Positions 9,686 through 55,920 of a stretch of 64,000 nucleotides of DNA are shown here, piece by piece; position 1 is the first letter of the stretch; each line of letters starts with the position of its first letter. The stretch lies in contig JAMLHR010000010.1 in assembly GCA_023957015.1 (NCBI GenBank), forward strand, positions 8,693 through 72,692. The letters run 5' to 3'. This DNA is from Thermomicrobiales bacterium. Lineage in GTDB: Bacteria > Chloroflexota > Chloroflexia > Thermomicrobiales > UBA6265. The notes below the pieces were generated by a model. That model made no database searches and was not told the origin of the DNA. It saw only the letters and a program-made list of their open reading frames with translations. A program made the position numbers and the translations under genes.

Positions 9686-11968
9686 ATGCCCGACTACGGT
9701 CACGATCTTCGATTCGGTATCAATCTCGTTCCGGTGGCAAATCCGGTTCATAATATCGTTGCCCTGGCACAGATCGCTGATCAGGCGGGGCTGGACTACG
9801 TCACCTTCCAGGATCATCCTTACAACAACACATTTGTGGATGCCTTCTCGCTCATGACCTGGGTGGCGGCGCAGACGGAGCAGATCAGGGTTGCTGGCAA
9901 TGTGCTCAATCTGCCGCTGCGTCCGCCCGCAATGCTGGCGCGGTCGTCCGCGGCACTGCAGATACTCAGCAACGGACGCTACGAGCTTGGACTCGGCGCC
10001 GGCGCATTCTGGGACCCGATCGCCGCGATGGGCGGTCCCAGACGAACTCCGGGCGAGGCAACACGAGCACTTGAGGAAGCGATCGATCTCATCCGCCAGA
10101 TCTGGAACACCGAGCTCCGTGGCGGTGTCCGCTTCAGTGGCGAGTTCTACCAGGTCAGCGGGATGACGCGGGGACCCGAAATCCGGGCGGAAATCCCGAT
10201 CTGGCTGGGTGCGTACAAACCCAAAATGCTCAAGCTCCTCGGGCAGAAAGGCGATGGCTGGCTGCCAAGCATGGGTTACATGGAGGTCGAGGGCTTTGCC
10301 GATGGCAATGCCCGGATCGACGATGCCGCAGTCAATGCCGGTCGCCGACCGGAAGACATTCGCCGCATGTTCAATATCATGGGGTCGTTCCTGCGGGCAG
10401 ATCGCGGTTGGCTCAAGGGCACACCACAGATGTGGGCGGAGCAGCTGGCGGAACTCTCGCTGCGAGATGGTGTCAGCACCTACCTGCTCGGCACACAGGA
10501 TCCAGCCGATATCCAGACATTCGCCGAGGAAGTCGCGCCAGCAGTGCGCGAGATCGTCGCCAAGGCCCGCGGCGAGGAGCTGCCGATCGATCACCGCCGT
10601 CCCTCGCTGACCAGCTACACCAGGGAAACCGATGCGAGTCGCAGCGAGAGGATCGATTACGACGCCATTCCCGAATCGCTCAAAGCCGCCTCGGTCGCGC
10701 CGGATCAGCCAGGCTATGATCGCGTGCGTTCGACCTATATGCAGTCCGGCACACCGGGTCTGGTCCTGATGGCATCATCGGCGGAACAGGTCGCCGAAGG
10801 ACTGGAGTACGTCCAGAAACAGGACGTGTCCTTCAGTCTGCGCGCTGGCGGGCATGGTTCCGGTGGACTCAGCACCAACGATGGCGGCATCATCCTGGAT
10901 GTCAGCCGTATCAACGATATCTCCGTTATCGACGAAGAGACTCGCAGGATTCGGGTTGGGACGGGTGCGACCTGGGGGATGGTGGCCGAAGCGCTGGCTC
11001 CGCACGGCTGGGCGATGACGAGTGGTGATTTCCCGGATGTCGGCGTCGGTGGCATCGTCACCACCGGCGGTATCGGCTTGCTCGCACGCAAGTACGGACT
11101 GACCATCGACAACATGGTCGCCGCCGAGATCGTGCTTGCCGATGGCTCGTTCCATCGCGTCAGCGAAACCGAGAATCCGGAACTGTTCTGGGGTATTCGC
11201 GGAGCTGGCGGCAATCTCGGTGTGGTCACGCACGTCGAACTGACGGCGCTACCGGTCGAGAATGTCATCGTCGGTCAGTTCGTCTTCGATGCCAGTGATC
11301 TCACCGAGTTCCTGGTCAACTGGGGTGCCTACATGAAGGCCGCTCCACGGGAGTTGCAGGCGTTCGCCTACTACTCACCGCGACGTCGTGGCTCGGATGC
11401 CACCATGCAGACACTGATGGTTTGGTCGAACGACAACGCGGATGCTGCGGTGGCGGCGCTGAATCCCATCCTCGATATCGCGCCGGTGCTGCAACAGGGC
11501 GCGACCATCGTCCCCTACTCCGCCATCATGCAACCGGTGAACCAGGCACATTCCGGTCAGCAGACGTTACGCGCACGATCTGGTTTGTTGGATGAATTGA
11601 ATCGGGAGACCGCAGAAGCGATCAAGGCGTTGATGGAGGCTGGTCGTGTGCCGTGGGCGAACTTCCGCCACGTTGGTGGCGCGGTCAACGATGTCCCTGC
11701 CGATGCGACCGCCTACGCTCATCGCACGCAGGATGTTTGCTTCACCGCCTTCGATCTCTACCCGGATCGTCGCAATATCGATCCCGCCTGGCAGAAGTTC
11801 GCGCCATTCGTTCACGGTGACTACCTGAATCTGGAGACGGACACCAGCGAACGCACCGTTCGCGAGATCTATCCGACACCCACCTACGAGCGGATTCAGC
11901 GGCTGAAATCGCAATACGATCCCAAGAACGTGTTCAATCGCAACTTCAACATCCCGCCGGTGAAGTAA
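9686..11968 (+). CDS. Fusion protein: LLM-class (luciferase-like, probably F420-dependent) oxidoreductase + FAD-binding PCMH/BBE-type oxidase
   Basis: Single uninterrupted 760-aa ORF. Residues 1-~300 look like an LLM (FGINLVP...LDYVTFQDHP...YELGLGAGAF). Residues ~355-760 look like FAD_binding_4 (RAGGHGSGG, FWGIRGAGGNLGVVT) with a BBE-like C-terminus (YLNLE...RLKSQYDPKNVFNRNFNIPP). Confidence 0.8.
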   Translation: MPDYGHDLRFGINLVPVANPVHNIVALAQIADQAGLDYVTFQDHPYNNTFVDAFSLMTWVAAQTEQIRVAGNVLNLPLRPPAMLARSSAALQILSNGRYELGLGAGAFWDPIAAMGGPRRTPGEATRALEEAIDLIRQIWNTELRGGVRFSGEFYQVSGMTRGPEIRAEIPIWLGAYKPKMLKLLGQKGDGWLPSMGYMEVEGFADGNARIDDAAVNAGRRPEDIRRMFNIMGSFLRADRGWLKGTPQMWAEQLAELSLRDGVSTYLLGTQDPADIQTFAEEVAPAVREIVAKARGEELPIDHRRPSLTSYTRETDASRSERIDYDAIPESLKAASVAPDQPGYDRVRSTYMQSGTPGLVLMASSAEQVAEGLEYVQKQDVSFSLRAGGHGSGGLSTNDGGIILDVSRINDISVIDEETRRIRVGTGATWGMVAEALAPHGWAMTSGDFPDVGVGGIVTTGGIGLLARKYGLTIDNMVAAEIVLADGSFHRVSETENPELFWGIRGAGGNLGVVTHVELTALPVENVIVGQFVFDASDLTEFLVNWGAYMKAAPRELQAFAYYSPRRRGSDATMQTLMVWSNDNADAAVAALNPILDIAPVLQQGATIVPYSAIMQPVNQAHSGQQTLRARSGLLDELNRETAEAIKALMEAGRVPWANFRHVGGAVNDVPADATAYAHRTQDVCFTAFDLYPDRRNIDPAWQKFAPFVHGDYLNLETDTSERTVREIYPTPTYERIQRLKSQYDPKNVFNRNFNIPPVK

Positions 11969-12070
11969 CGCGGTTTGTTGGCTGCAACCCTGTGCGTACC
12001 CATGGTTTTCGGGATATGTTAGCCAGATAACAATGGAGATATCCGTACGTAATCGGGGATAGGGAAAGAC

Positions 12071-12784
12071 ATGCCGATCGTTTCAGCTCCGGGCGGACCA
12101 AAAATCCTGGTGACCGCCGCACATCCGGACGATATCGAAGCCACCTGCGCCGGAACGCTCATGCTCGCGATCGCGCAAGGTGCTCGGGTGAGGCTGTTGC
12201 TGGCAACCTCGGGAGACAAAGGTTCCAGCGATCCGGCCATAGACCCCGTGGCATTGGCGGCACAGCGAGAGTCTGAAGCGCAGAATGCCGCAAGTATCCT
12301 CGGTATCGAGGCCGTGGAGTTTCTCCGATACCCAGATGGCGAACTCGAGAACACCCGCGAGCTCCGTGGTCATATCGTGCGGGCCATCCGCGAGTGGCAA
12401 CCCGATGTGGTGTTCACCTTCGATCCCGAACATGCCCTGCCGCCTTATCTATCCCATCGGGATCATCGAGTGATCGGTCGCGCCACACTGGATGCGGTCT
12501 ATCCCCTGTCGCGCGATCACCTTAGTTTTCCGGAGCTTATCAGCAAGACACTAACACCGCACAAGGTCGCCGAAGTGTGGCTGTACTACAGCGGGATCGC
12601 CGATAGCTGGGTAGATATCAGCTCCGTCATGGATCGCAAGATTGACGCGCGTCTCGCGCACGCCTGTCAGACGCCGGACCCGGCACTGTTGAGAACCGCC
12701 TGGTTCGAACGCGCGCGCATTGCTGGCGAAGCGGGAGGATTGCCGATGGCTGAGGCCTTCACCATTATCCAGGCGCTGGCGTAG
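12071..12784 (+). CDS. PIG-L/LmbE family deacetylase
   Basis: 237 aa. ILVTAAHPDDIEATCAGT and HRDHR motifs. Confidence 0.8.
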   Translation: MPIVSAPGGPKILVTAAHPDDIEATCAGTLMLAIAQGARVRLLLATSGDKGSSDPAIDPVALAAQRESEAQNAASILGIEAVEFLRYPDGELENTRELRGHIVRAIREWQPDVVFTFDPEHALPPYLSHRDHRVIGRATLDAVYPLSRDHLSFPELISKTLTPHKVAEVWLYYSGIADSWVDISSVMDRKIDARLAHACQTPDPALLRTAWFERARIAGEAGGLPMAEAFTIIQALA

Positions 12785-12888
12785 GCGCGATCTCACGAAG
12801 ATTTCCTGACAGTCAGGAACCGATTGGCACCATACGATTGAGCGAAATCTCATCCGCATCCAACACCGTGTACGAAAGGTAGATACCA

Positions 12889-14589
12889 ATGTCCCCAATC
12901 CCCTCCGATCTCGAGATCGCGCAATCCGCCACCATGCTGCCCATGAACGATGTGGCGGCGCAACTCGGTATCGCCCCGGAGTATCTCCTCCCCTACGGTC
13001 GTAACATCGCCAAGGTGGATCCTGCCGTCGTTGAGACGATGGGCGATCGCGAACCCGGCAAGTACATCGTCGTTACCGCGATCACACCGACACCGCTCGG
13101 CGAGGGCAAGACGACGACCGCCGTTGGTTTAGCCCAGGGTCTGAAGCATGTCGGCAAAACCAGTGTGCTCACGCTCAGGCAGCCGAGCATGGGACCAACC
13201 TTCGGTATTAAAGGCGGAGCCGCCGGTGCTGGCTACAGCCAGGTGCTACCTATGGAGCAGCTCAACCTGCACTTAACCGGCGACTTTCACGCTGTCACCG
13301 CTGCCCACAACCTGCTGGCGGCGATGATCGATAACCACCTCCACCACGGCAATGCGCTCGATCTGGATATCGATGCGATCCAGTGGCGACGCGTGCTTGA
13401 TGTCAATGATCGTTCGCTCCGCGATATCGTTATCGGTCTTGGTGGCAAGGCCGATGGTGTGACACGCCAGACAGGCTTCGATATCACTGCCGCCAGCGAG
13501 GTCATGACGACACTCGCACTCGCGACCAGTCTGGAGGATTTGCGCGAACGGCTGGGACGGATCGTCATCGGTCGCAATCGAAGTGGGAAGTTCGTCACCG
13601 CCGAAGATCTCCAGGCAGCTGGCGCGATGACGGTCATCCTACGCGATGCCATCTGGCCCAACCTGCTTCAGACGACCGAGAACACACCGGTGCTCATTCA
13701 TTGCGGACCGTTCGGGAATATCGCCACCGGCAATAGCAGCATCATCGCCGATCAGGTCGGACTGCGCACCGCCGAGTACGTGATCACCGAGGCGGGTTTC
13801 GGTGCCGATATGGGTGCCGAGCGCTTCTTCAACATCAAGTGCCGCGTCGGGAATGCCCGTCCGGCGGCGGCTGTGCTGGTGGTCACCGTGCGGGCGCTGA
13901 AGGCGCACAGCGGTCGCTTTAAGATCACACCGGGCAAACCGCTTCCACCGGAACTACTGGCCGAGAACGCGGACGATGTCCGCGCCGGTGCCGATAACCT
14001 GCGCAAGCATATTCAGATCGTACAGGGATTCGGTGTGCAACCGGTTGTCGCGATCAATGCCTTCCCCACCGATCACGCCAGCGAGCATGAAGCGATCCGT
14101 GAGATCGCCGAAGCGATGGGTGTGCGCGTGGCCGTCAGCACGCATGTTGTCGATGGCGGTCCCGGTGCGGCTGATCTGGCGCGAGAGGTTATCGCTGCGG
14201 CAGAGGAAGAGACGAACTTCCAGTACACCTATGAGCTGGAGATGTCGCTGAAAGACAAGATCGCCGCGGTCGCGACCAAGGTGTACGGCGCGGCGGATGT
14301 CTCCTACGCGCCGCTGGCGGCAAAGAATCTGAAGGCGTTTGAGGATGCCGGATATGGCAGTCTGCCAGTGGTGATCGCCAAGACGCACCTCAGTGTCAGC
14401 AGCGATCCGAAGCTGAAGGGTGCGCCAACTGGCTGGACGCTGCCAGTGCGCGAGGTGCGACTTGCTGCGGGTGCAGGCTACGTCTACGCCATCGCGGGCG
14501 ATATGACGACCATGCCAGGGCTGGGTAACTCTCCTGCCGCCGAGCGAATCGATATCACTGAGGATGGCAAGGTGGTGGGTCTTTTTTAG
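12889..14589 (+). CDS. fhs: Formate--tetrahydrofolate ligase
   Basis: 566 aa. PTPLGEGKTTTAVGL P-loop and family-wide conservation throughout. GAAAGG lies upstream. Confidence 0.97.
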   Translation: MSPIPSDLEIAQSATMLPMNDVAAQLGIAPEYLLPYGRNIAKVDPAVVETMGDREPGKYIVVTAITPTPLGEGKTTTAVGLAQGLKHVGKTSVLTLRQPSMGPTFGIKGGAAGAGYSQVLPMEQLNLHLTGDFHAVTAAHNLLAAMIDNHLHHGNALDLDIDAIQWRRVLDVNDRSLRDIVIGLGGKADGVTRQTGFDITAASEVMTTLALATSLEDLRERLGRIVIGRNRSGKFVTAEDLQAAGAMTVILRDAIWPNLLQTTENTPVLIHCGPFGNIATGNSSIIADQVGLRTAEYVITEAGFGADMGAERFFNIKCRVGNARPAAAVLVVTVRALKAHSGRFKITPGKPLPPELLAENADDVRAGADNLRKHIQIVQGFGVQPVVAINAFPTDHASEHEAIREIAEAMGVRVAVSTHVVDGGPGAADLAREVIAAAEEETNFQYTYELEMSLKDKIAAVATKVYGAADVSYAPLAAKNLKAFEDAGYGSLPVVIAKTHLSVSSDPKLKGAPTGWTLPVREVRLAAGAGYVYAIAGDMTTMPGLGNSPAAERIDITEDGKVVGLF

Positions 14590-14604
14590 GGGTAGTAGAT
14601 GTAG

Positions 14605-14674
14605 CCCCGGACCGATCGGTCGCGTTGTAGAGGATAACTGTGAACAACCAATCGCGACCGTGAGTGGTCCGGGG
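14605..14674 (+). repeat. H1 hairpin repeat, copy A (two stems separated by a conserved asymmetric internal loop GATC / GTGAGT)
   Basis: CCCCGGACC-GATC-GGTCGCG-[28 nt]-CGCGACC-GTGAGT-GGTCCGGGG. Related copies lie at 32305-32373 and, inverted, at 32472-32542. Confidence 0.65.
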
Positions 14675-14687
14675 TATGTCCGGTGGC

Positions 14688-14786
14688 GCCAAGATGACCG
14701 GGCTGCCGCACCTCCGGGTGATGGCGGTCAACATGCCCCAACCTGACCGACCATGGGGCGGGAGCCGGGAGGTCGGTCATCTTGGC
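14688..14786 (+). repeat. M2 structured repeat, copy 1
   Basis: Closed by a perfect 13-bp stem GCCAAGATGACCG...CGGTCATCTTGGC. Has internal hairpins and a conserved GGTCAACATG centre. A direct repeat of it lies at 15422-15510. Confidence 0.6.
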
Positions 14787-14808
14787 AGAGGAGTCGATCA
14801 GAAGACCT

Positions 14809-15411
14809 ATGGATGTGACTCCCACTATCTACGACCGCGAGGTCCTGGAGAAACTCTTCAACGGCAGCGCTAAAGGTCGGAGACACGTCCATTTCTTCGC
14901 CGCGATCCCAGATGATCTCATTCCGCACTTGCCCGGATTCTGGTGGGATCAACGTAAACTCTTCGCTCTGGACTTGGAGAAGGAAATACTTTCCACCAGT
15001 GAACTCGACTATCTTCTTGATGTCCCGATCTGGCGAGCAACAGCGCAATCATCCCTCTTTGCTGTGAGAGGGAGAGACATCCTAATGAATCCTAAAAGGT
15101 ACCCCGATCACTGGAGAAGGATTCAGGCTGCTGATATCTCGTATCCCATCATTCTCTACAAGAGAGACGGATACATTCTCCTTCTTGATGGATACCATCG
15201 ACTCCTTAAACCAATATATGAAGGTCACTCTCATATTCATGCTTCATTCATTGCGTATGAGCGTATTGATGGCATTCTCATCACCGAAAGGTTCCTCGGA
15301 GAACTCAATACTGCGTCTCGCGATGATCCGGAGTTCATCGTCCACGCCCGGGAGGTTGCTCGCGATCTCCTCGTGTCAGAAAAGGTAGATCAGTATCCGG
15401 CCTGGACGTAG
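14809..15411 (+). CDS. ParB/sulfiredoxin-fold domain protein (DGYHR motif), otherwise uncharacterised
   Basis: Visibly more AT-rich ORF. PIILYKRDGYILLLDGYHRLLKP (DGYHR at 15187-15201) matches the ParB N-terminal/Srx-fold core motif. The N-terminal ~120 aa is unrecognised. The track starts at TTG 14782; I prefer ATG 14809. Confidence 0.6.
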   Translation: MDVTPTIYDREVLEKLFNGSAKGRRHVHFFAAIPDDLIPHLPGFWWDQRKLFALDLEKEILSTSELDYLLDVPIWRATAQSSLFAVRGRDILMNPKRYPDHWRRIQAADISYPIILYKRDGYILLLDGYHRLLKPIYEGHSHIHASFIAYERIDGILITERFLGELNTASRDDPEFIVHAREVARDLLVSEKVDQYPAWT

Positions 15412-15421
15412 TTGACCCCAC

Positions 15422-15510
15422 GCCAAGATGACCGGGGTGCCAACCCCCTGGGGGTGGGTGGTCAACATGACCGGCATCGGCCGGGGGCGTGGAAGGTCGG
15501 TTACCTTGGC
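15422..15510 (+). repeat. M2 structured repeat, copy 2
   Basis: Same 5' arm GCCAAGATGACCG. The 3' arm CGGTTACCTTGGC gives one G-U and one A-C. The GGTCAACATG centre is conserved, and the internal hairpins differ in sequence but still pair. Confidence 0.6.
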
Positions 15511-15632
15511 TGAGAAGCCATATTGTAGGCTCGGGTCGACCGCCGCTTGCGGCGTAAGTCTTCCCGGGAACCGCCCGCAGGCGGCATGATGCGAATGCGG
15601 CGACGGAACCTGTGTTATGCCCAAACACCATT

Positions 15633-15651
15633 GTCACCCACGAGGGGTGAC
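15633..15651 (-). terminator. Hairpin immediately downstream of the tsaC stop
   Basis: GTCACCC-ACGAG-GGGTGAC lies 1-2 nt after the stop codon (15653-15655, minus strand). No strong U-tract. Confidence 0.4.
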
Positions 15652-15652
15652 G

Positions 15653-16282
15653 CTACCTGCTGGCCGTTCCCCACGCTGACCGGAGCTCATCCGCGCTGAT
15701 CGCACCCTCGCGCAGCACCACAATCTCCCCATCAACCACACGAATGACCGTGCTGGGGTTCTCTTGCGGTGAGAAGCCGCCATCCAATACCAGATCAAGC
15801 TTGCTGCCAAATGAATCCTTGATCTCGGCAGCGGAGAGAGCTGCCGCCTGACCGGAGAGATTGGCACTGGTGGTGGCGACTGCACCACCGAGGCGTTCGG
15901 CGATGGTGAGCGGGATGGAATGGTTCGGAAGACGCACACCGATGGTGTTGTCCGGGGCCTTCACCTCGGCGGGAAGATGATCCGCGGCTGGAAGCACAAC
16001 GGTCAATGCCCCCGGCCAGAATCGCTGCGCGAGATCGATCAAGCGCTCATCGACATCCGGACTGAGATCATCGATCACTTCCGCTCGCGCGATCAGGATC
16101 GGCAGCGGCTTATCTGGCTGCCGACCCTTGAGATCGTAGATACGCTGTAGCGCCGCCGGATGCTCCAGGCTGGCACCGATGCCGTAGACGGTATCGGTGG
16201 GGAACGCGACTATGCCACCGCGACTCATGGTGATGATCGCCTCTTCGAGCGCGCGTCCTTCCTCAAGACTCAGATACGACAT
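15653..16282 (-). CDS. tsaC: L-threonylcarbamoyladenylate synthase (YrdC/Sua5 domain)
   Basis: GGIVAFPTDTVYGIGA, KGRQPDKPLPILI and TSANLSG motifs. The preferred start is MSYLSLEE at 16282 (track ORF reaches 16312). Overlaps the uvrC 3' end by 20 nt. Confidence 0.85.
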   Translation of the reverse strand: MSYLSLEEGRALEEAIITMSRGGIVAFPTDTVYGIGASLEHPAALQRIYDLKGRQPDKPLPILIARAEVIDDLSPDVDERLIDLAQRFWPGALTVVLPAADHLPAEVKAPDNTIGVRLPNHSIPLTIAERLGGAVATTSANLSGQAAALSAAEIKDSFGSKLDLVLDGGFSPQENPSTVIRVVDGEIVVLREGAISADELRSAWGTASR

Positions 16283-18152
16283 CTGCCTGCTCCTTTGTCT
16301 GAGACGTATCACCGATCGCGGATTTCAACGCCAACGCCACACTCTGGTTAATACCATCGACGGCCGTAATCTCATCGATCGTCGCCGCTCGCATCGCCTT
16401 GATCGAACCGAAGTGCTTCATCAGCGCCTTCTTGCGAGTCGGCCCGACGCCCGGGATGTCATCCAGCTGGCTCTTAAACGCGTTCTTCCGCCGTGTATTG
16501 CGATGATAGGTGATCGCGAAGCGATGCGCCTCGTCCCGGATACGTTGCACCAGGAAGAGCGCCTGCGAATCGCGCGGCAGCAGAATGGAATCCGGTCGAC
16601 CGGGCAGGAAGATCTCCTCCTGCTCCTTGGCGAGACCGCAAATCGGCACCTCCATGCCGATTTCCTCCAGCGCTTCCAGGGCTGCGCTCAGCTGCCCCTT
16701 GCCACCGTCGATGATTACCAGATCGGGGAGCGTCGTCCACTTACCCTCGGTCTCCTCATCCGCCTCTTTGGCGCGACGGAAACGGCGACCGATGACCTCC
16801 TTCATGCTGGCGAAGTCATCCGCCCCAACCACCGTCTTGATACTGAAACGGCGGTATTCCTTCTTCGCCGGACGACCATCCTCGAAGACGACCATACTCG
16901 CGACCGGCGAGGTGCCCTGGATATTGGAGTTATCGAAACACTCGATCCGTCGCGGCATTCGCGGCAGGTCCAGCGCCTCCGCCAACTCGGTCATGGCGGC
17001 GGTCATCTTCATCTCGTCGCTCAGGTGCTTGATCCGCGCCTGTTCCAGATTCTCGGCGGCACTCTTGGCGACCATCCGCACCAGGCCCAGCTGATTGCCT
17101 CGCTGGGGTACGTGGATGCTCACCTTACCGCCCCGCTTGGCGGTGAGCCACTCCTCGATCATCATCGCCTCTTCGGGGAGCATGGCGTATTGCATCACCA
17201 ACCGTGGCGGCACCAGGGCAGCATCCTCGTAGAACTGGGTGACAAACGCCTGCAGAATATCGCTCTCGCTATCTTCCACCCGCGCCTGCATTGGGAAGAA
17301 CTCGGAACCAATCATCTTGCCGTGGCGGAGGAAACTGATCTGGACACCAGCATCGCCGCCCTCGCCCTTACTGACACCGATGATATCGGCGCTGGAGCCG
17401 GTATCGATGACGATCTTCTGTCGCTCCAGCACGTGGTTCACGGCCTGGAGGCGATCCCGCAGCTCCGCTGCTCGCTCGAAGTTCAGATCTTCGGCGGCCG
17501 CGATCATCTCGTGTTCGATATCCTTGACGATCTCGTCGCCCTTGCCACTGAGGAACTTGGCGGTGGCGTCGATCGCCTTCATGTACTCCTCGTGGCTGAC
17601 GGCGCCGATACAGGGTGCGGTGCACTGGTGCATATGGAAGTAGAGACAGACCTCATCATGTCCGGTAATCTTCTTGTCGCATTTGCGGTATGGGAAGAGC
17701 CGATTGAGCAGATTGATCGTCTTGTAGGCGGCACCGGCGCTGGTGTACGGTCCGAAATACTGACTGCCATCCTGCACCACCAGGCGCGTGCTGATCACGC
17801 GCGGCCATTCCTCATTAGTGATACGGATATATGGATAGGTCTTACTATCCTTCAGCATGATGTTGTACTTGGGTAAGTACTTCTTGATGAGGTTGTTCTC
17901 GAGAATGAGTGCCTCGGTGGCGGTATCGGTGCGAATCACCTCGAAGTCGGTGATGTGGCTCACTAGCTCCCGGGTTTTAGGATCCTTGTGTCGTTGGTTC
18001 TGAAAGTAGGATCGCACCCGATTGCGCAGGCTGATCGCCTTACCCACATAGAGGACGTTCCCATCGGCGTCTTTCATCAGATAGACGCCCGGTCGCGTGG
18101 CAAGTGAGGCGAGGCGGGAACTGAAATCGGGGCGGGAATTCTTCGTCGTCAT
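16263..18152 (-). CDS. uvrC: Excinuclease ABC subunit C
   Basis: 629 aa. GIY-YIG N-terminus (PGVYLMKD...VLYVGKA), UVR domain, and a C-terminal HhH pair. Confidence 0.97.
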   Translation of the reverse strand: MTTKNSRPDFSSRLASLATRPGVYLMKDADGNVLYVGKAISLRNRVRSYFQNQRHKDPKTRELVSHITDFEVIRTDTATEALILENNLIKKYLPKYNIMLKDSKTYPYIRITNEEWPRVISTRLVVQDGSQYFGPYTSAGAAYKTINLLNRLFPYRKCDKKITGHDEVCLYFHMHQCTAPCIGAVSHEEYMKAIDATAKFLSGKGDEIVKDIEHEMIAAAEDLNFERAAELRDRLQAVNHVLERQKIVIDTGSSADIIGVSKGEGGDAGVQISFLRHGKMIGSEFFPMQARVEDSESDILQAFVTQFYEDAALVPPRLVMQYAMLPEEAMMIEEWLTAKRGGKVSIHVPQRGNQLGLVRMVAKSAAENLEQARIKHLSDEMKMTAAMTELAEALDLPRMPRRIECFDNSNIQGTSPVASMVVFEDGRPAKKEYRRFSIKTVVGADDFASMKEVIGRRFRRAKEADEETEGKWTTLPDLVIIDGGKGQLSAALEALEEIGMEVPICGLAKEQEEIFLPGRPDSILLPRDSQALFLVQRIRDEAHRFAITYHRNTRRKNAFKSQLDDIPGVGPTRKKALMKHFGSIKAMRAATIDEITAVDGINQSVALALKSAIGDTSQTKEQADVVSES

Positions 18153-18383
18153 GCCGGAATTATATCAGAACGGATGTTCCCGTTGATTTTGCTTCGTCCA
18201 GATCTTTGGCGACTCAAGCCGCTGAATCGAGCCTAATGGGACAAACTGGGACTATTTAGAGGCAGCATCCTGTGATATACATCAAAGAGCCTGGGGGACA
18301 AATAGTAGCCATTGGCGATCCATAACTCTGGTTTGGACCAAGGGGATGATCGTCGGATCTCTAAAGCAATGCGGAGGTGAGCA

Positions 18384-19985
18384 ATGTCGAATAAGGGAGA
18401 ATCAGCATCGACACTTAGTTGGAGCAATCCAAGACATCTCGTCAAAATAGCCCCCAGCGGGAGAGTATGCTATGTCATATGCAATCCTGATGGATCTCTA
18501 ATAGAGAGAGACGCTTATGATTGGCAGTCTACATGGCGAGGGAGGTGGCACTACAGCGAAGGCTGTCTGTCTATCAGAATCGGCCCATATGAACTCTGGA
18601 CCAATCCTAACTCTGTTGAGGCCGTTGAGATCGACCATCGCGATCCTGACCGCTCATCAACACCATTCCTAGTCTTACCCGTTATGACCTCAGAGGCATG
18701 GTCCGTTGGTGGTATGAGACCAGCATTCCTCAAGCTTACGAAACCAGGAGATCGATACGAACCCAAGATATCGGAGCTGGGGAATCGAGGCACTGTACTG
18801 GATTACTCCGCTGTCCGTGGCATGGAGGATTGGGTATGGAACGGCAAGTGGGAACATCGACTAGATTCCTACACAGTAAATATTGAGGACAAGTGGATTT
18901 GGTCTGGAAGTCGTGTCCAAGGATATGGGCTGCTGCGTGGGAGAGAGAAAGGCGAAGAAGGCGAATGGGAACTCAATGCCATCTCTGTGCTACTACCACA
19001 TTGTGGTATTCGGGAACCAATGCACGATCGTTCTCCAAACGAAGAAAATCCAATAGAGAATCCTTCGATTATGGCTGGCCGGAAGAAACGTAAGGGATCC
19101 GCTCTGGAGAATTGGGAGATCGAGACGCTGAAGCATGGAGTGGTAGAGAGCAACTGGTATTGCTCATCCTGCCCAGACCTGTTCGAACCAGATGACCAGG
19201 GTCTAGCAATCTCTTCATTCAAAGCAGACGTTTTGATAGTAGTAGCAACCGAACTCGAACGACGGTACGCCCTCAATCTCCTTACACCATTGCCTGGACA
19301 CCAACAACCGGCCGAACGAGCGTTTTCCTCTCATACATATGTGTTTGGTATGATCGGCTCACATTACGTTGTTATCCTGATGGTGGCACCCGGGACGGTC
19401 GATATGCGGAGTGTAGATTTGGCAACTACTTCCGCAATTGCCCACTGGGATCCTCAGGCAATCATAATGGTTGGTATCGCCGCTGGGAACACCTGGAAGG
19501 AGAATCAACATATCGGCGATGTACTGGTGGCGCATTCGGTTCAGTCTTACGAGCACAAGAAGGTCCGTGATGGGAACCTAGAATACCGAACCTATGACAC
19601 TCCTCCGGCTCACAGAGCATTGGTGGACCGTTTTCATCACCCGACTGGTTGGAGATTCATCAAACCTGATGACACAAGTTCTGAAATACACTATGGTCGC
19701 TTGTTGAGTGGGAATACCCTTGTCGCAGATGCGCAGTACCGCGATGACCTATTTAAAGATTTCCCGGGTTCCATCGGAATTGAGATGGAGGGAGTCGGTC
19801 TTGCTCGAGCAGCGACTTACTCAGACAAACCTTGGATATTGGTCAAAGGTGTCGCTGACTGGGCGGATGGGAACAAGGGAGAACGGACCGATCTTTATCA
19901 GGAGATAGGTGCGGCAGCGGCAACGAGTTTGATAGGCACGGTCCTTTCAAGACACTCTGCTTTGGAGGGTCTCAAGAGAAAATAA
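18384..19985 (+). CDS. Two-part protein: unrecognised tandem Trp-rich N-terminal domain (aa 1-280) + PNP_UDP_1 / MTA-SAH-nucleosidase-like phosphorylase-fold domain (aa ~281-533)
   Basis: Strong SD GGAGGTG before the ATG; more AT-rich composition. C-terminal motifs occur in fold order: ADVLIVVATELE, IIMVGIAAGN, GDVLVAHSV, GIEMEGVGLARAA, ILVKGVADWADGNK. The N-terminus contains two related ~85-aa units (WRGRWHYSEGCLSIRIGPYELW / WNGKWEHRLDSYTVNIEDKWIW). Confidence 0.75.
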   Translation: MSNKGESASTLSWSNPRHLVKIAPSGRVCYVICNPDGSLIERDAYDWQSTWRGRWHYSEGCLSIRIGPYELWTNPNSVEAVEIDHRDPDRSSTPFLVLPVMTSEAWSVGGMRPAFLKLTKPGDRYEPKISELGNRGTVLDYSAVRGMEDWVWNGKWEHRLDSYTVNIEDKWIWSGSRVQGYGLLRGREKGEEGEWELNAISVLLPHCGIREPMHDRSPNEENPIENPSIMAGRKKRKGSALENWEIETLKHGVVESNWYCSSCPDLFEPDDQGLAISSFKADVLIVVATELERRYALNLLTPLPGHQQPAERAFSSHTYVFGMIGSHYVVILMVAPGTVDMRSVDLATTSAIAHWDPQAIIMVGIAAGNTWKENQHIGDVLVAHSVQSYEHKKVRDGNLEYRTYDTPPAHRALVDRFHHPTGWRFIKPDDTSSEIHYGRLLSGNTLVADAQYRDDLFKDFPGSIGIEMEGVGLARAATYSDKPWILVKGVADWADGNKGERTDLYQEIGAAAATSLIGTVLSRHSALEGLKRK

Positions 19986-20139
19986 GCACCCCTATTGCTT
20001 CGTTTTCATAGTCGCAGCCAAGACTCCGGGGACCAGGGTCCGCGCTGAAGACGGCAGCTTGCCTCCCTCCGCTATTCGTTCTGCACACTCGGCCACCTTC
20101 GGTGCCCCGGATCCGCAGGTGAGTCACGGCAGTTGTGGC

Positions 20140-25821: not shown

Positions 25822-27231
25822 ATGATTGAACTCGTAACCTTCGATTTCCACAACACAATCGCACACTGCGACGACTGGTTCCAGCTCGAGATCCGGATGC
25901 TGCCTGTCGCGGTATTGGAGCAGCTTGATCCGGAGACGCTGACGCGTATCGGTAGCGAGGAGATCGTAGCTGCCTATCGAACCCTGCGCATGAGCGTGAT
26001 CGAGTCTGGGGTGGAAATAGAGGCAATCGACGGTGTTGATCGCGTCTTCCGATCCTTTGATCTCATCTATGATCGCGAAGCAATTGAAGATGCCGTGGCC
26101 GGGGTAATGGGGAGGTCGGTCACCTTGGCGTCGCCCGTACCAACCGCGATCGAAGCGATCCGATTCCTGCGTGAGCGAGACATACGGATCGGTGTCGTCA
26201 GCAGCGCCGTTTATCACCCGTTCCTGGAATGGACGCTGGAACGCTTCGGGGTAGCCGATGCGGTTGAGTTCATCGTCACCTCGGCTAGCGCCGGTATCTA
26301 CAAGAGCAATCCGGAACTGTATCGCGGTGTCCTGGCGGAGGCCGGAGTACAACCAGATCATGCGGTCCACATCGGCGATTCCGCCAGGTGGGATATCTGG
26401 AGTCCACAACAGGCCGGTATGCGAGCAGTGCTGGTGCCGAACGGCGAGCCGATCAGTCCGCTGCAGCACGACACCGACGCTACCCCTGATCATGTAGCCG
26501 AGACGGTACTGGACGCCGCCGAATGGGTGTTGGGCCAACAGGCACCACGGTTGACCATCGATATCTTCACGCTCTTCCCCCCAATGTTCACGGGAGTGCT
26601 GGGAGAAAGCATCCTCAAACGCGCTCACGCCAAGGGTCTGATCGATATCCGCGTTCACGATATCCGCGATTGGACACATGACAAGCATCGCACCGCCGAC
26701 GACACACCCTACGGCGGTGGCGCCGGGATGGTGATGAAGGCACCACCGATCGTAGAAGCTGTCGAAGAGGTACTTGGCGATGATCTGCCGAACGCTCACA
26801 TCGCGATCATGAGCGCGGGCGGACGGCGTTTCACCCAGGAGATCGCGCAGGAACTGAGCGAACACGGCCGAATCGCGCTGATCTGCGGTCACTACGAGGG
26901 TATCGACGAGCGCGTCTCCGAGATCCTCCAGGCCGATGAACTCTCGATTGGCGATTACGTGCTCACCGGCGGCGAACTCCCGGCGATGGTCATCGCCGAC
27001 ACGATCAGTCGGTTGGTGCCTGGGGTGATCACCGAGGAAAGCATCCTGGACGAGTCGCATCTGGGTGAGTATGTGGAGTATCCCCATTACACCCGTCCAC
27101 AGGAGTATCGCGGATTGGAAGTGCCGGAGGTGCTCCTCAGCGGCCACCATGCCAAGATCGCTGAATGGCGCGCTGATCAGGCAAAGCTCCGCACCGCCAA
27201 ATGGCGGCCGGATTTGCTGAAAGACAACTAA
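25822..27231 (+). CDS. trmD: Fusion ORF: HAD-superfamily hydrolase + tRNA (guanine37-N1)-methyltransferase TrmD
   Basis: 469 aa with no stop between the domains. N-terminus has HAD motifs (VTFDFHNTI, VVSSA, HIGDS). From ~aa 236 it reads TrmD (IDIFTLFPPMF, DDTPYGGGAGMV, ICGHYEGIDERV, SIGDYVLTGGELPAMV). Confidence 0.85.
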   Translation: MIELVTFDFHNTIAHCDDWFQLEIRMLPVAVLEQLDPETLTRIGSEEIVAAYRTLRMSVIESGVEIEAIDGVDRVFRSFDLIYDREAIEDAVAGVMGRSVTLASPVPTAIEAIRFLRERDIRIGVVSSAVYHPFLEWTLERFGVADAVEFIVTSASAGIYKSNPELYRGVLAEAGVQPDHAVHIGDSARWDIWSPQQAGMRAVLVPNGEPISPLQHDTDATPDHVAETVLDAAEWVLGQQAPRLTIDIFTLFPPMFTGVLGESILKRAHAKGLIDIRVHDIRDWTHDKHRTADDTPYGGGAGMVMKAPPIVEAVEEVLGDDLPNAHIAIMSAGGRRFTQEIAQELSEHGRIALICGHYEGIDERVSEILQADELSIGDYVLTGGELPAMVIADTISRLVPGVITEESILDESHLGEYVEYPHYTRPQEYRGLEVPEVLLSGHHAKIAEWRADQAKLRTAKWRPDLLKDN

Positions 27232-32232: not shown

Positions 32233-32304
32233 TCGGTGTAGCGCCGAGCTGCGAGTGCCATTCGTACCGAGCTAATCACCGAAGTGATCGAAGCCGACTC
32301 ATAG

Positions 32305-32373
32305 ACCCGGACCGATCAAGCGCGAACCATCGATATTCCTGCGGAAGACGTCGCGCTTGTGAGTGGTCCGGGT
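32305..32373 (+). repeat. H1 hairpin repeat, copy B
   Basis: ACCCGGACC-GATC-AAGCGCG-[27 nt]-CGCGCTT-GTGAGT-GGTCCGGGT. The inner stem carries three compensatory changes relative to copy A. Confidence 0.65.
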
Positions 32374-32471
32374 TCAGCTTCTCACCTCCACCCTTCCAAT
32401 CCTCTGGATACATGTATGCAACCACCATTGCTGGATGCCAGAGGTGAATTGGGACTCCGTTGGCATCGTGA

Positions 32472-32542
32472 ACCCGGACAACTCACGGTCGCGGTTGGTT
32501 GGAGGGCGACCACTCTCGGAACCGCGACCGATCGGTCCGGGT
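32472..32542 (-). repeat. H1 hairpin repeat, copy C (inverted orientation)
   Basis: The reverse complement reads ACCCGGACC-GATC-GGTCGCGG-...-CCGCGACC-GTGAGT-TGTCCGGGT. Confidence 0.65.
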
Positions 32543-32609
32543 CTACTCCTCCGGGACAACCTCACGGAATCTCTCGGTACAGATGCCATGTCAGCCCGGC
32601 GACACAGCC

Positions 32610-46360: not shown

Positions 46361-47508
46361 ATGCGCATCATGTGGACGATTGGGTACGACGATCTGGAAA
46401 GCATTGCTGTGGGCGCTGGCATCCTCGGCACCGGCGGTGGCGGCAATCCGTATATCGGCAAGCTGATGACGCGGCGTTGCCTCGACGATGGCGCGCGCAT
46501 TCAGGTCGTTCAACCCGATGATGTGCCCGACGAGGCGACGTGTGCCTCTGTCGGCGGTATGGGCGCACCAACGGTGAGTATCGAGAAGATTCAGCGCGGA
46601 GATGAGCCACTGGTCGCGTTGCGGGCGCTGGAGCAGTTCACCGGCAAGAAGGTGGGCTACCTGGTGCCGTGGGAGATCGGCGGCACCAACAGCATGCGAC
46701 CGCTGGTCCAGGCCGCGAAGAGCGGTTTGCCGGTGGTGGATGCCGATGCGATGGGTCGCGCCTTCCCGGAACTGCAGATGTGCACCTACTCGATCTACGG
46801 GGTGCCGGGTGCACCGGCGGCGATTAGTGATGTCAGGGGTGATGTCGCGCTCTTCCCGAACATATCCACCGACCAGTTGCTCGAACGCTATGCTCGTGCG
46901 GTGACAATCGAGATGGGCGGGAGCGCCGGCATCGCCAGTCCGCTGATGAGCGGTGCGGATATGAAGCGCACCGTGATTCCCGGCACCCTCACCTTCGCTC
47001 GCGATCTCGGCGCGGCCGTGCGCCAGGCACGAGAGACATTGGCGGATCCGGTGCAGGCTGTGTTGGACGTTTGCAATGGCCAATCACTGTTCCGGGGGCA
47101 AGATCGTCTCCGTCGAACGCCGTGTCGCCAAGGGATTCTCCCGCGGTAGAGGTGATTATCGATGGGCTGGACGATAACCGTGGCGATACCCTGCACATCG
47201 ACTTCCAAAACGAGAATCTGATCGCTCGTCGCGGCGAGGAAGTACTGGCCTCCGTACCTGATCTCATCTGCATCGTGGACTCTGTTACCGCGGAGCCGAT
47301 CGCAACCGAGGTACTGCGGTACGGACTCACCCGGGTAACAGTACTCGGCATTCCGGCACCCAGACTGCTGAAGACGCCGGAAGCATTGGCGGTGGTAGGT
47401 CCGGGTGCGTTTGGCTATGACGTGCCGTTTGTGCCTCTGGCCGGCGTGTATGGGGTGAGAACTAACCCATCCGGTACCGACCTTGTTCGTGGACTAGCCC
47501 CTATCTGA
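46361..47508 (+). pseudogene. DUF917 (PF06032-like) protein gene interrupted by two +1 frame changes
   Basis: Frame A reads ...GILGTGGGGNPYIG...NGQSLFRG up to ~47098. The family-typical KIVSVERRVAKGFSRG is in frame A+1 (47097-47148). VIIDGLDDNRGDTLHIDFQNENLIAR...PDLICIVD continues in frame A+2 (track ORF 47071-47508). Confidence 0.7.
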
Positions 47509-47518
47509 TAGGTCACGG

Positions 47519-47540
47519 TAGAGGCCTGCTACAGCCTCTA
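47519..47540 (+). terminator. Hairpin after the DUF917 gene
   Basis: TAGAGGC-CTGCTACA-GCCTCTA is a 7-bp stem located 11 nt after the stop. Confidence 0.4.
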
Positions 47541-47632
47541 TCGCAACGACACCCCTTTAAATGATCCGTACGCATGTCGAGGGGGTATCTCATTGTGTCG
47601 AGTCTGCGGAGATGCCTACTTGGGAATATCAA

Positions 47633-47905
47633 CTAACGTGATCTCAGTGTCTTCCCAAATGCATGCGCTGCTTTCACCACCGTACTCAGTTTCACATCAT
47701 CGACATCTCGATTGATCAGGCGATCTACCTGGGACCTGCTGGTACCCATCTGACTCGCCAACTGAGTTTTACTCATCTCCTGACGCTCCATCTCTTCCAT
47801 CATCCAGTTCAAGACGTCAGTAAGTGCCTGAGTTTTGACTTCCTCATACGCACCCTCTGCAATCAGGAAATCATCAAAGGATTCTCCAAGGTGCTTGTTA
47901 CTCAT
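47633..47905 (-). CDS. XRE-family HTH antitoxin-like protein (HigA-like)
   Basis: 90 aa, intact. MSKTQLASQMGTSRSQVDRLIN is an XRE HTH. Its start overlaps the end of the decayed toxin reading frames. Confidence 0.75.
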   Translation of the reverse strand: MSNKHLGESFDDFLIAEGAYEEVKTQALTDVLNWMMEEMERQEMSKTQLASQMGTSRSQVDRLINRDVDDVKLSTVVKAAHAFGKTLRSR

Positions 47906-48300
47906 TCTCGCGTGCCTCCAAAAGCTGTTTTCTCCTTCGAGCAGCTACTGCCAGTTCGGATTTGGGGGTTTCTGCGTCTTCTTCGACGCATGAAGCAAAA
48001 TGGCCTCGCCGTTATTGTAGGGGTGAACAGAATTCCGACAATCCTGTGTGTCGTCAGATTTACGAATCTCCCAGATCTGGTTCTCCGAAACCGACATACC
48101 GGCATACCTATCAGCCAACCATACTCAACTCTTGCGATCGCGATGCCTACAACTTTCCGATCGTCCTCGAAAGTTCCAGCAGAAAAATCCGAACGGGACT
48201 GCCGTTATCAACCCGAAAAGATCGCGCCGGCAAGGTCTTTAGCTCCGACAACTGAACCTCCAGGTACAAGGCAAGTGTACCATGCATGGTACGCGTCAAT
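47902..48300 (-). pseudogene. Decayed Gp49/HigB-like (RelE/ParE superfamily) toxin gene, multiple frameshifts and stops
   Basis: Family-like pieces are scattered over three minus-strand frames: LSELKTLPARS...VRIFLLELSRTIGKL*, QIWEIRKSD, HRIVGILF, NNGEAILLHASKKTQK, TPKSELAVAARRRKQLLEARENE*. The last junction is consistent with a 1-nt loss in CAGAAA(A)CCCCC. Confidence 0.5.
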
Positions 48301-48457
48301 ATCTTCCTCAAACTATGTTGTATGCGGGTGTACCTATATGTGTTGATGATCACGGTATCTGGCATCAGAAAGCGTCGGAGTCGTATCAGGACGAAACAGC
48401 AAATCGTACCCAGAGCCATCACTCTGAGAACTACTGATTCTATAGGGACGCCGTGGG

Positions 48458-48533
48458 TGACCCCCCCGGGACTCGAACCCGGAACCCAATGGATTAAAAG
48501 AGATCCACTGCTCTGCCATTGAGCTAGAGGGTC
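48458..48533 (-). tRNA. tRNA-Lys(UUU)-like gene with a 3-nt insertion in the anticodon loop (possible pseudo-tRNA)
   Basis: Hand fold: acceptor GACCCTC/GGGGGTC, D arm GCTC-AATGGCA-GAGC, anticodon stem GTGGA/TCCAT, T arm CCGGG-TTCGAGT-CCCGG. The loop reads TCT+CTTTTAA (10 nt) where E. coli tRNA-Lys has CTTTTAA. The variable region is 6 nt. The 3' flank is CCC, not CCA. Confidence 0.6.
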
Positions 48534-55755: not shown

Positions 55756-55920
55756 ATGCCGCTTTGGCCCTTCTCGAAGAAATCACTTCAACCCTTCGGG
55801 ATCACCAAACTACACGATGCAACCACGTTCTCGGTGCTAATCCGTATAGCAGCACGCTTTGCTGCTAGTGCAATGCACAACCACCGCGCCCGATCGGCCC
55901 GGGACTACAAGAATCACACC

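Follow-up and report, generated by a model that had tools for sequence, protein, structure and literature searches.

A small gene unit bounded by hairpin-forming repeats and encoding a ParB/Srx-fold protein looks like a rare cassette in a Thermomicrobiales genome

Insertion sequences (ISs) of the IS200/IS605 type and their PATE-like derivatives have hairpin ends, make no target-site duplications and can be mobilised in trans. Correia, ERIC and REPIN elements are structured sequences of ~100 nt with terminal inverted repeats that lie in transcribed intergenic DNA; they are multi-copy and dispersed and usually show target-site duplications or a GTAG head. Cassettes of integrons and of clusters of attC sites lacking integrases (CALINs) comprise a short promoterless open reading frame (ORF), an imperfectly palindromic site of ~57-141 nt a few nt 3' of it and another such site upstream in direct orientation. 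The attC site carries an AAC (R'')/GTT (R') triplet pair within RYYYAAC / GTTRRRY, an unpaired central spacer and extrahelical bases, and Chloroflexi are known to carry integrons (PMC4889954). Here we describe a locus that partly resembles each of these systems. In a 64-kb stretch of DNA from a Thermomicrobiales bacterium (the window, whose positions are used throughout), an ORF for an orphan ParB/Srx-fold protein lies between the convergent genes fhs and tsaC and is bracketed by two copies of a hairpin-forming repeat, M2. This M2-ORF-M2 unit looks like a small mobile cassette of a rare and undescribed kind, bounded by hairpin-forming sites and encoding an uncharacterised ParB/Srx-fold enzyme. 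The best-supported reading of the sequence comparisons is that the unit is a transferable cassette, with M2 as its cis-acting boundary element.

Insertion and recurrence of the M2-bracketed gene

The fhs-tsaC intergenic segment of the window (1063 nt) is extra DNA in comparison to the closest relative that we found (L014), in which TsaC is 85% identical, the mutS...fhs / tsaC-uvrC synteny is the same and 16 nt separate the stop codons of the convergent genes fhs and tsaC, leaving an empty site. In L015-L017, where TsaC is 79% identical, a TetR gene follows tsaC after 15 nt and M2 is absent. The segment is also foreign in composition: the ORF has a GC content of 50% and a GC content at third codon positions (GC3) of 54%, compared to 61% and 68-71% in the flanking genes, and it forms a low-GC island whose minimum over 400-nt intervals (46.8%, against a window mean of 58.4%, standard deviation 3.1) is the lowest in the window. 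The M2 elements themselves have a GC content of 66-68%. As the site is empty in L014 and L015-L017 lack M2, and given this foreign composition, the parsimonious reading is that the whole spacer would have been acquired horizontally in the window's lineage.

The unit recurs in a second context. L006, a 996-nt Logan contig encoding P0001 (58% protein identity), contains a full M2 upstream of the gene (224-318; 97.4 bits with a covariance model (CM)) and a second M2 that starts 10 nt after the stop codon, the same offset as in the window. The left neighbour in L006 has no relation to fhs, and the CGCCAA of M2 is exactly the point from which the contig resembles the window. Here too the ORF is poor in GC (48%, compared to 58% in the L006 flank). 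Between the two loci the ORFs are 66.5% identical in DNA, while the M2 5' block (21 nt) matches at 19/21 positions and the M2 3' block (GGGAGGTCGGTCATCTTGGC) at 20/20; as the blocks are far more conserved than the ORF DNA, this points to selection on their primary sequence and hence to a recognition site. A mosaic origin of the upstream M2 of L006 (5' part like copy 2, 3' part like copy 1) offered too few informative sites and was not used. A reading made earlier from the letters of the window (hereafter the sequence-only reading) had proposed a small cassette, and this proposal gains from both the absence of the segment in the closest relative and the recurrence of M2-ORF-M2 elsewhere.

M2 was found only beside the two closest members of the protein clade. 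It is absent, in nhmmer and CM searches, from the loci of homologues of ≤47% identity (L003-L005, L007, L008 and L018-L020), which sit in unrelated contexts, such as beside Rieske/cytochrome b genes or beside MatE and GNAT genes. The sequence-only reading had named a conserved, syntenic ORF in relatives without repeats as evidence against itself; this objection holds in part, as homologues of ≤47% identity occur in other genomes without M2. In L003 (5162-8204), L004, L005 and L008, 40%-identical homologues occur in high-GC contigs (68-70%) within a conserved block of a Rieske gene, cytochrome b, a 232-aa gene, a 93-aa gene, the homologue and an opposed ~93-aa gene overlapping its 3' end, a setting that suggests a resident, non-cassette role for this 40%-identity branch.

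At the strain level, the protein is present, exactly, as a 209-aa entry in three NCBI records of metagenome-assembled genomes (MAGs) named Thermomicrobiales bacterium. The window is ~98.5% identical to two MAGs (L001 and L002), and the spacer is 100% identical in all three. Divergence among them over 9800-18100 is patchy, with some 400-nt bins showing 0 differences and their neighbours 10-26, which suggests frequent homologous recombination in the population; given this patchiness, the identical insert says nothing on recent spread.

Within the spacer the order is a hairpin (H1), M2 copy 1, the ORF, M2 copy 2, two short GC hairpins and a terminator-like hairpin of tsaC (Table 1). The sequence-only reading had located the gene ends, H1, M2, the ORF and the short hairpins, and its coordinates all match when re-read against the window. 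No related copy of the tail that follows copy 2 occurs elsewhere in the window or in the comparison loci. The genes up to 10 kb on either side have housekeeping functions (mutS, a PIG-L family gene, fhs, tsaC, uvrC, aroC and others), and no recombinase, transposase or integrase domain was found among the genes called within 10 kb on each side, so that a cassette unit would be non-autonomous. Neither a sigma-70-like promoter nor a U-tract terminator was found in the fhs-tsaC segment, including the part upstream of copy 1; the absence of a promoter is usual for promoterless cassettes.

Table 1. Positions of features of the fhs-tsaC locus and of relatives of the H1 hairpin in the window.
Feature	Position	Strand	Remark
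fhs	12889-14589	+	stop at 14589
fhs-tsaC intergenic segment	14590-15652	.	1063 nt; extra DNA relative to L014
H1 hairpin	14598-14679 (hairpin ~14604-14675)	+	RNA fold z = -5.3
M2 copy 1	14687-14790 (core 14688-14786)	+	CM 94.8 bits
M2 copy 1, motif site A	14688-14700		
M2 copy 1, motif site B	14726-14738		degenerate
M2 copy 1, motif site C	14774-14786		inverted
ORF	14809-15411	+	200 aa; contains PIILYKRDGYILLLDGYHRLLKP
M2 copy 2	15421-15514 (core 15422-15510)	+	CM 92.6 bits; starts 10 nt past the stop codon
M2 copy 2, motif site A	15422-15434		
M2 copy 2, motif site B	15460-15473		
M2 copy 2, motif site C	15498-15510		inverted
Segment tail	15515-15652	.	short GC hairpins and tsaC terminator-like hairpin
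Short GC hairpins	15541-15554 and 15571-15584		within the tail
tsaC terminator-like hairpin	15633-15651	-	
tsaC	15653-16282	-	stop at 15653; convergent with fhs
H1 relative	32297-32377	+	nhmmer E 3e-20
H1 relative	32470-32550	-	nhmmer E 7.5e-21
H1 relative (possible)	55883-55910		

Three observations on the surroundings stand apart from the M2 unit. In L014 the fhs stop lies within a GGGCTTT/AAAGCCC hairpin (L014 6610-6655) that is absent from the window and is probably a shared bidirectional terminator of fhs and tsaC. Directly after uvrC in the window, a low-GC island (~50%) at ~18180-20139 contains a PNP_UDP_1-family gene for 533 aa; L002 shares the island, whereas L001 has ~240 nt instead, a strain-level indel. 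A second low-GC stretch (47500-48500, ~49-51%), which adjoins the only tRNA gene of the window (48458-48533, minus strand), is a possible hotspot of integration.

Sequence, structure and relatives of M2

The two M2 copies of the window are in direct orientation, as the sequence-only reading had it, and are 78% identical with a 10-nt indel; a hidden Markov model (HMM) built from both recovered them from the 64-kb window with nhmmer E values of 3e-29 and 2e-24, far outside what chance would give. M2 is an imperfect palindrome with cores of 89-99 nt in which a motif of 11-13 nt, CAA[G/C]ATGACCG, occurs in three versions. Site A at the 5' end is followed in the same orientation by site B, always 39 nt downstream; site C lies in inverted orientation at the 3' end, and its distance from B varies. 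Site B is often a GGTCA-NNN-TGACC palindrome, and the G/C variants of the motif at sites A and B are swapped in L006 relative to the window.

Our comparison of structure rests on three full M2 copies, two in the window and one in L006. In copy 1 the arms form terminal inverted repeats that pair perfectly over 13 bp (GCCAAGATGACCG / CGGTCATCTTGGC), and the outer stem has 13-14 uninterrupted pairs in RNA and DNA folds alike. The 3' arm of copy 2 (CGGTTACCTTGGC) makes one G-U and one A-C opposition, leaving 11 Watson-Crick pairs and 1 G-U of 13, and the arms of the upstream M2 of L006 pair at 12/13. RNA folds of both window copies are more stable than those of shuffled sequence (z -4.4 and -3.4), and sense folds (-59.2 and -50.3 kcal/mol) are stronger than antisense ones (-54.2 and -41.3 kcal/mol). 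The consensus structure predicted for the sense strand has ~9 cells with G-U pairs to 1 with an A-C mismatch. The interiors are variable, with a 9-10-nt indel, and hairpins can still form in them. The sequence-only reading saw in these internal hairpins, which differ yet pair, the mark of selection on structure; the pairings are real, but three copies do not suffice to show such selection: covariation is weak (double changes at 3/35 predicted pairs), and the outer-arm substitutions are uncompensated in all three cases (C-C, A-C and G-U). As what is conserved in M2 is mainly the primary sequence of three blocks, the comparison argues for recognition by a sequence-specific protein rather than for a stem maintained as such.

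Two other readings of M2 were tried and rejected. A mini-ORF (MTG[V/L]P...) crosses M2, and its frame is broken in copy 2 by the 10-nt indel; a promoter inside M2 was rejected as no sigma-70-like site was found there.

M2 resembles attC in having conserved ends and a centre of variable length, at 89-99 nt and 10 nt past the stop codon. However, M2 lacks the AAC:GTT pair, its 5' arms reading GCCAAG (3 cases) or GCCAAC (1) and all three 3' arms CTTGGC; the outer stem of copy 1 runs uninterrupted for 13-14 bp without an unpaired central spacer or extrahelical bases; and M2 carries a third, internal copy of the arm motif. An alternative attC assignment through GGTCAAC / GTTGACC was discarded because that pair surrounds copy 2 but not the other copies, and its order is wrong. 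The locus also differs from integrons and CALINs in having a single cassette and no integrase within 10 kb on each side. M2 is not an attC site as far as our tests allow. Like IS200/IS605 and PATE-like elements, the M2 unit has two similar hairpin-forming ends, direct on one strand, and no target-site duplications, but it contains neither tnpA nor tnpB, its ends are 90-100 nt long and similar over their full length where those of IS200/IS605 are short subterminal hairpins, and two junctions do not suffice to establish a conserved target tetranucleotide.

With the Correia, ERIC and REPIN families M2 shares its size, its structure, its intergenic setting and its terminal inverted repeats, the 13-bp arms being a feature also of miniature inverted-repeat transposable elements (MITEs). 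In contrast to those families it shows, in the data at hand, neither dispersal in many copies nor a GTAG head nor target-site duplications: no direct repeat was found at the flanks GGTGG|C...C|AGAGG, CCCCA|C...C|TGAGA and GATGT|C...C|GTCGG. Neither the 64-kb window nor the related loci (~120 kb) yielded a further full M2 by CM or HMM. Exact-pattern scans with the terminal arms, or with the 5' part plus the centre, returned no true M2 from JGI metagenomes, IMG/VR or 185,579 species genomes, a collection that evidently contains no cassette-bearing genome of the source species; every match was a chance one within a coding sequence, and other scans gave none. Plasmids of PLSDB gave no match by tblastn or blastn, and a literature search with the motif string returned only unrelated primer sequences. 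At Rfam gathering thresholds the only hit in the window was a tRNA, and at E up to 10 over 14500-15750 there were only sub-threshold matches to unrelated (eukaryotic) families. M2 remains unmatched in Rfam and among recognised repeat classes, in agreement with the sequence-only reading, which knew of no described system with this layout. One near-copy of the M2 3' block (GGGAGGTCGGTCACCTTGGCGTCG) lies at 26107-26133 (plus strand) within a HAD-hydrolase/TrmD-like coding sequence. It is identical to the M2 of L006 at 23/24 nt and scores 41.1 bits in blastn with the L006 M2 as query, compared to a maximum of 27.6 in 200 shuffles; with a CM score of 15.5 bits (E 0.89) it is not a full M2.

H1 is separate from the M2 module. 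It belongs to a dispersed hairpin-repeat family of the source genome, ~80 nt long, whose copies open with a GTAG or ATAG head followed by CCCGGACCGATC and whose inner stem shows a compensatory change (CGGTCGCG/CGCGACCG compared to CAAGCGCG/CGCGCTTG). At 32.3-32.55 kb, convergent genes enclose two copies arranged as an inverted doublet, which resembles a REP or REPIN. No member of the family occurs in the loci of relatives that we compared.

The ParB/Srx-fold protein

NCBI records the gene product as a hypothetical protein of 209 aa that starts at TTG 14782, within the M2 stem. The true start is most likely ATG 14809, giving 200 aa, as the N-termini of homologues align there and the equivalent TTG of L006 is out of frame; TTG 14782, which is not conserved, was therefore rejected.

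The protein matched nothing in Pfam (E up to 10), NCBIfam, PADLOC with its defence models or PDB sequences, and no helix-turn-helix (HTH) family was among the hits; phrog_17560, of unknown function, matched at E 9e-12. Among 5.8 billion clusters there are ~20 full-length relatives, of which only P0001 is close. A profile search of 1.84 billion representatives widened the family to 1040 clusters at 50% identity, mostly proteins of 130-150 aa that match the core, with some members fused to GNAT, NUDIX, AAA_33, ATP-grasp, DUF3850 or other enzyme domains. No Pfam model covers the family core, and PF02195 went unmatched in 49 relatives at E up to 0.01. All of 105 family members share D127 and R131, and conservation is at least 90% at G128 and H130. 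In a search with the profile of these 105 members, the serine kinase SbnI, which has the ParB/Srx fold, was matched at E 1.7e-5 and sulfiredoxin at E 0.51. The SbnI match spans the PI..GR..LDGxHRL segment and aligns PI..GR..iLDG.HRL to P(I/V)lV..GRymVIDGVHR of SbnI, with the nucleotide-pocket motif (DGxHR / GxxR type) following the second core strand.

Structure prediction agrees with this assignment. AlphaFold (AF2) gave a pLDDT of 84.6 with 7 sequences and 95.1 with 105. Foldseek hits in the PDB were weak (E 0.04-1) and confined to ParB, Noc, KorB, Srx, SbnI, SerK and Osa. In BFVD the hits were significant (E 5.6e-6 to 8.8e-5) and came from jumbo phages and giant viruses; these ParB/Sulfiredoxin domain-containing proteins superpose with a root-mean-square deviation of 2.7-2.9 over ~125 columns and a target-normalised TM score of up to 0.69. 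The core also occurs, by tblastn, in PA5oct-like Pseudomonas jumbo phages. On the strength of the SbnI profile match and of Foldseek hits confined to ParB/Srx proteins, the ParB/Srx-fold core that the sequence-only reading had recognised stands for the modelled protein.

Within this fold, some ParB-fold proteins are nucleases. Others are site-specific DNA binders, namely ParB, KorB, Noc and VirB, and in enzymes of the SbnI/SerK/Srx type the fold serves as the module that binds ATP (PMC12704722). The HTH and the C-terminal dimerisation domain of the DNA-clamp proteins (ParB, Noc and KorB) are absent from our protein, and superpositions cover ~60-125 core residues. Like SbnI, SerK and sulfiredoxin, it combines a strand-strand-helix core and a DGxHR-type motif with the lack of an HTH; unlike them, it has no PF02195 match, and the model adds an N-terminal helical region of ~55 aa and two helices after the core. 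By analogy with these enzyme-type members, the protein is probably an enzyme that uses nucleoside triphosphates (NTPs).

Possible roles of M2

Our tentative choice, which we judge to have somewhat less than an even chance of being correct, is that M2 acts at the level of DNA, as a site of recombination or transposition for an enzyme whose gene lies elsewhere, and that the cassette is non-autonomous. A DNA-level role is favoured because of the insertion polymorphism, the direct orientation of the copies, their conserved ends and variable centre, the tight link between the 3' end of the ORF and M2, and the lack of a promoter. Under such a mechanism a recombinase or transposase acting in trans would recognise M2 sequence-specifically, in duplex or in folded single-stranded form, and the gene would be excised or inserted as the two direct copies recombine. 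Its working would resemble that of an integron cassette between two attC sites or of a passenger-carrying IS200/IS605-type element.

Several points weigh against this choice. The evidence for mobility is comparative and comes from only two independent instances, in one of which (L006) the contig ends 20 nt into the second M2, and no excision product, solo M2 or circular junction was seen among the sequences examined. M2 fails the diagnostic features of attC, and the 10 kb on each side contain no candidate recombinase. Site-specific insertion into a naive 16-nt site should leave one site and not two, unless the unit moves with both of its ends, like a transposon. As single-stranded DNA, copy 2 loses its outer stem in the minimum-energy fold, while as RNA it keeps it, and the stronger fold of the sense strand fits a role in RNA equally well. 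Finally, M2 could be multi-copy in the source genome beyond the 64-kb window.

In an explanation that we regard as unlikely, M2 is a cis-acting RNA element of the transcript, forming a 5' leader and a 3' end structure that act on stability, on processing (for example by RNase III) or on translation, and the cassette was inherited or moved together with its untranslated regions; transcribed Correia and ERIC elements offer a parallel. Both copies lie on the coding strand in both loci, copy 2 follows the stop codon by 10 nt in each, copy 1 abuts the Shine-Dalgarno sequence in the window, and the strand bias in fold strength and in G-U pairs, like the outer stem that copy 2 retains in RNA, is what such an element would show. 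Yet M2 and the start codon are separated by 22 nt in the window but by 55 nt in L006, and the two spacers are dissimilar; the Shine-Dalgarno sequence is outside the M2 stem in both loci and far from M2 in L006; a search of Rfam at E up to 10 yields no relative, and the region upstream of copy 1 no promoter; arm substitutions go uncompensated; and near-identical blocks of 20 nt beside genes that are 66% identical exceed what a stem needs. Given the same spacing and Shine-Dalgarno position, the unconserved TTG, the uncompensated arm changes and the lack of an ORF downstream of copy 2 in the window, the suggestion in the sequence-only reading that folding of M2 gates translation is not supported.

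The motif triplets might instead be binding sites for the cassette's own ParB/Srx-fold protein, the two forming a self-contained module that serves autoregulation, parS-like loading or self-mobilising nicking, a possibility to which we give less weight than to an RNA element. The protein is the sole gene that travels with M2, M2 is confined to the two closest members of its clade, the repeated 11-13-nt motif has a fixed geometry, and the fold includes the site-specific binders ParB, KorB, Noc and VirB (PMC12704722). Against this, the model has no HTH or recognisable DNA-binding domain and Foldseek aligns only its NTP-binding core, the wider family (1040 representatives) is mostly stand-alone or fused to enzymes, which suggests an enzyme that, like SbnI, SerK or Srx, acts on small molecules or modifies proteins, and long-form homologues of 43-47% identity occur without M2. 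A stronger claim, that M2-ORF-M2 is an autonomous minimal mobile element whose protein is an NTP-dependent nicking or strand-transfer enzyme recognising the three-motif M2 hairpins at both ends, seems to us very improbable. Slightly less credible than binding by the cassette's own protein is the view that M2 is a low-copy host repeat of the MITE, REP or REPIN type that, like H1, collects in convergent spacers and brackets the ORF as a by-product of an insertion hotspot. H1, a member of a dispersed family, does share the spacer, M2 has 13-bp terminal inverted repeats, our M2 counts cover a 64-kb window of the source genome, and the L006 contig breaks inside its second M2, as assemblies do at repeats. 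But chance does not explain why the order M2-ORF-M2, its orientation and its 10-nt offset recur at a 58%-identical gene elsewhere; in addition, no copy is flanked by a target-site duplication, the window contains no other full copy, and exact-pattern scans of public collections found no match.

As the unit is known from two instances and its mechanism is inferred, the practical value of the finding is modest for now. What it adds to the protein world is a sizeable family (~1000 clusters at 50% identity) outside Pfam, with a divergent ParB/Srx fold, frequent fusions to GNAT, NUDIX or kinase-like domains and members in jumbo phages; were the cassette protein itself the mobilising enzyme, transposases or recombinases would gain a class, unknown so far, that is based on the ParB fold. 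Should M2 serve as a site of recombination or transposition, it would mark a cassette system that current detectors would miss, as the attC model of IntegronFinder, IS and MITE finders and Rfam are not expected to report it. Such a system would mean that, in Chloroflexota, single genes move into tight spacers between convergent housekeeping genes.

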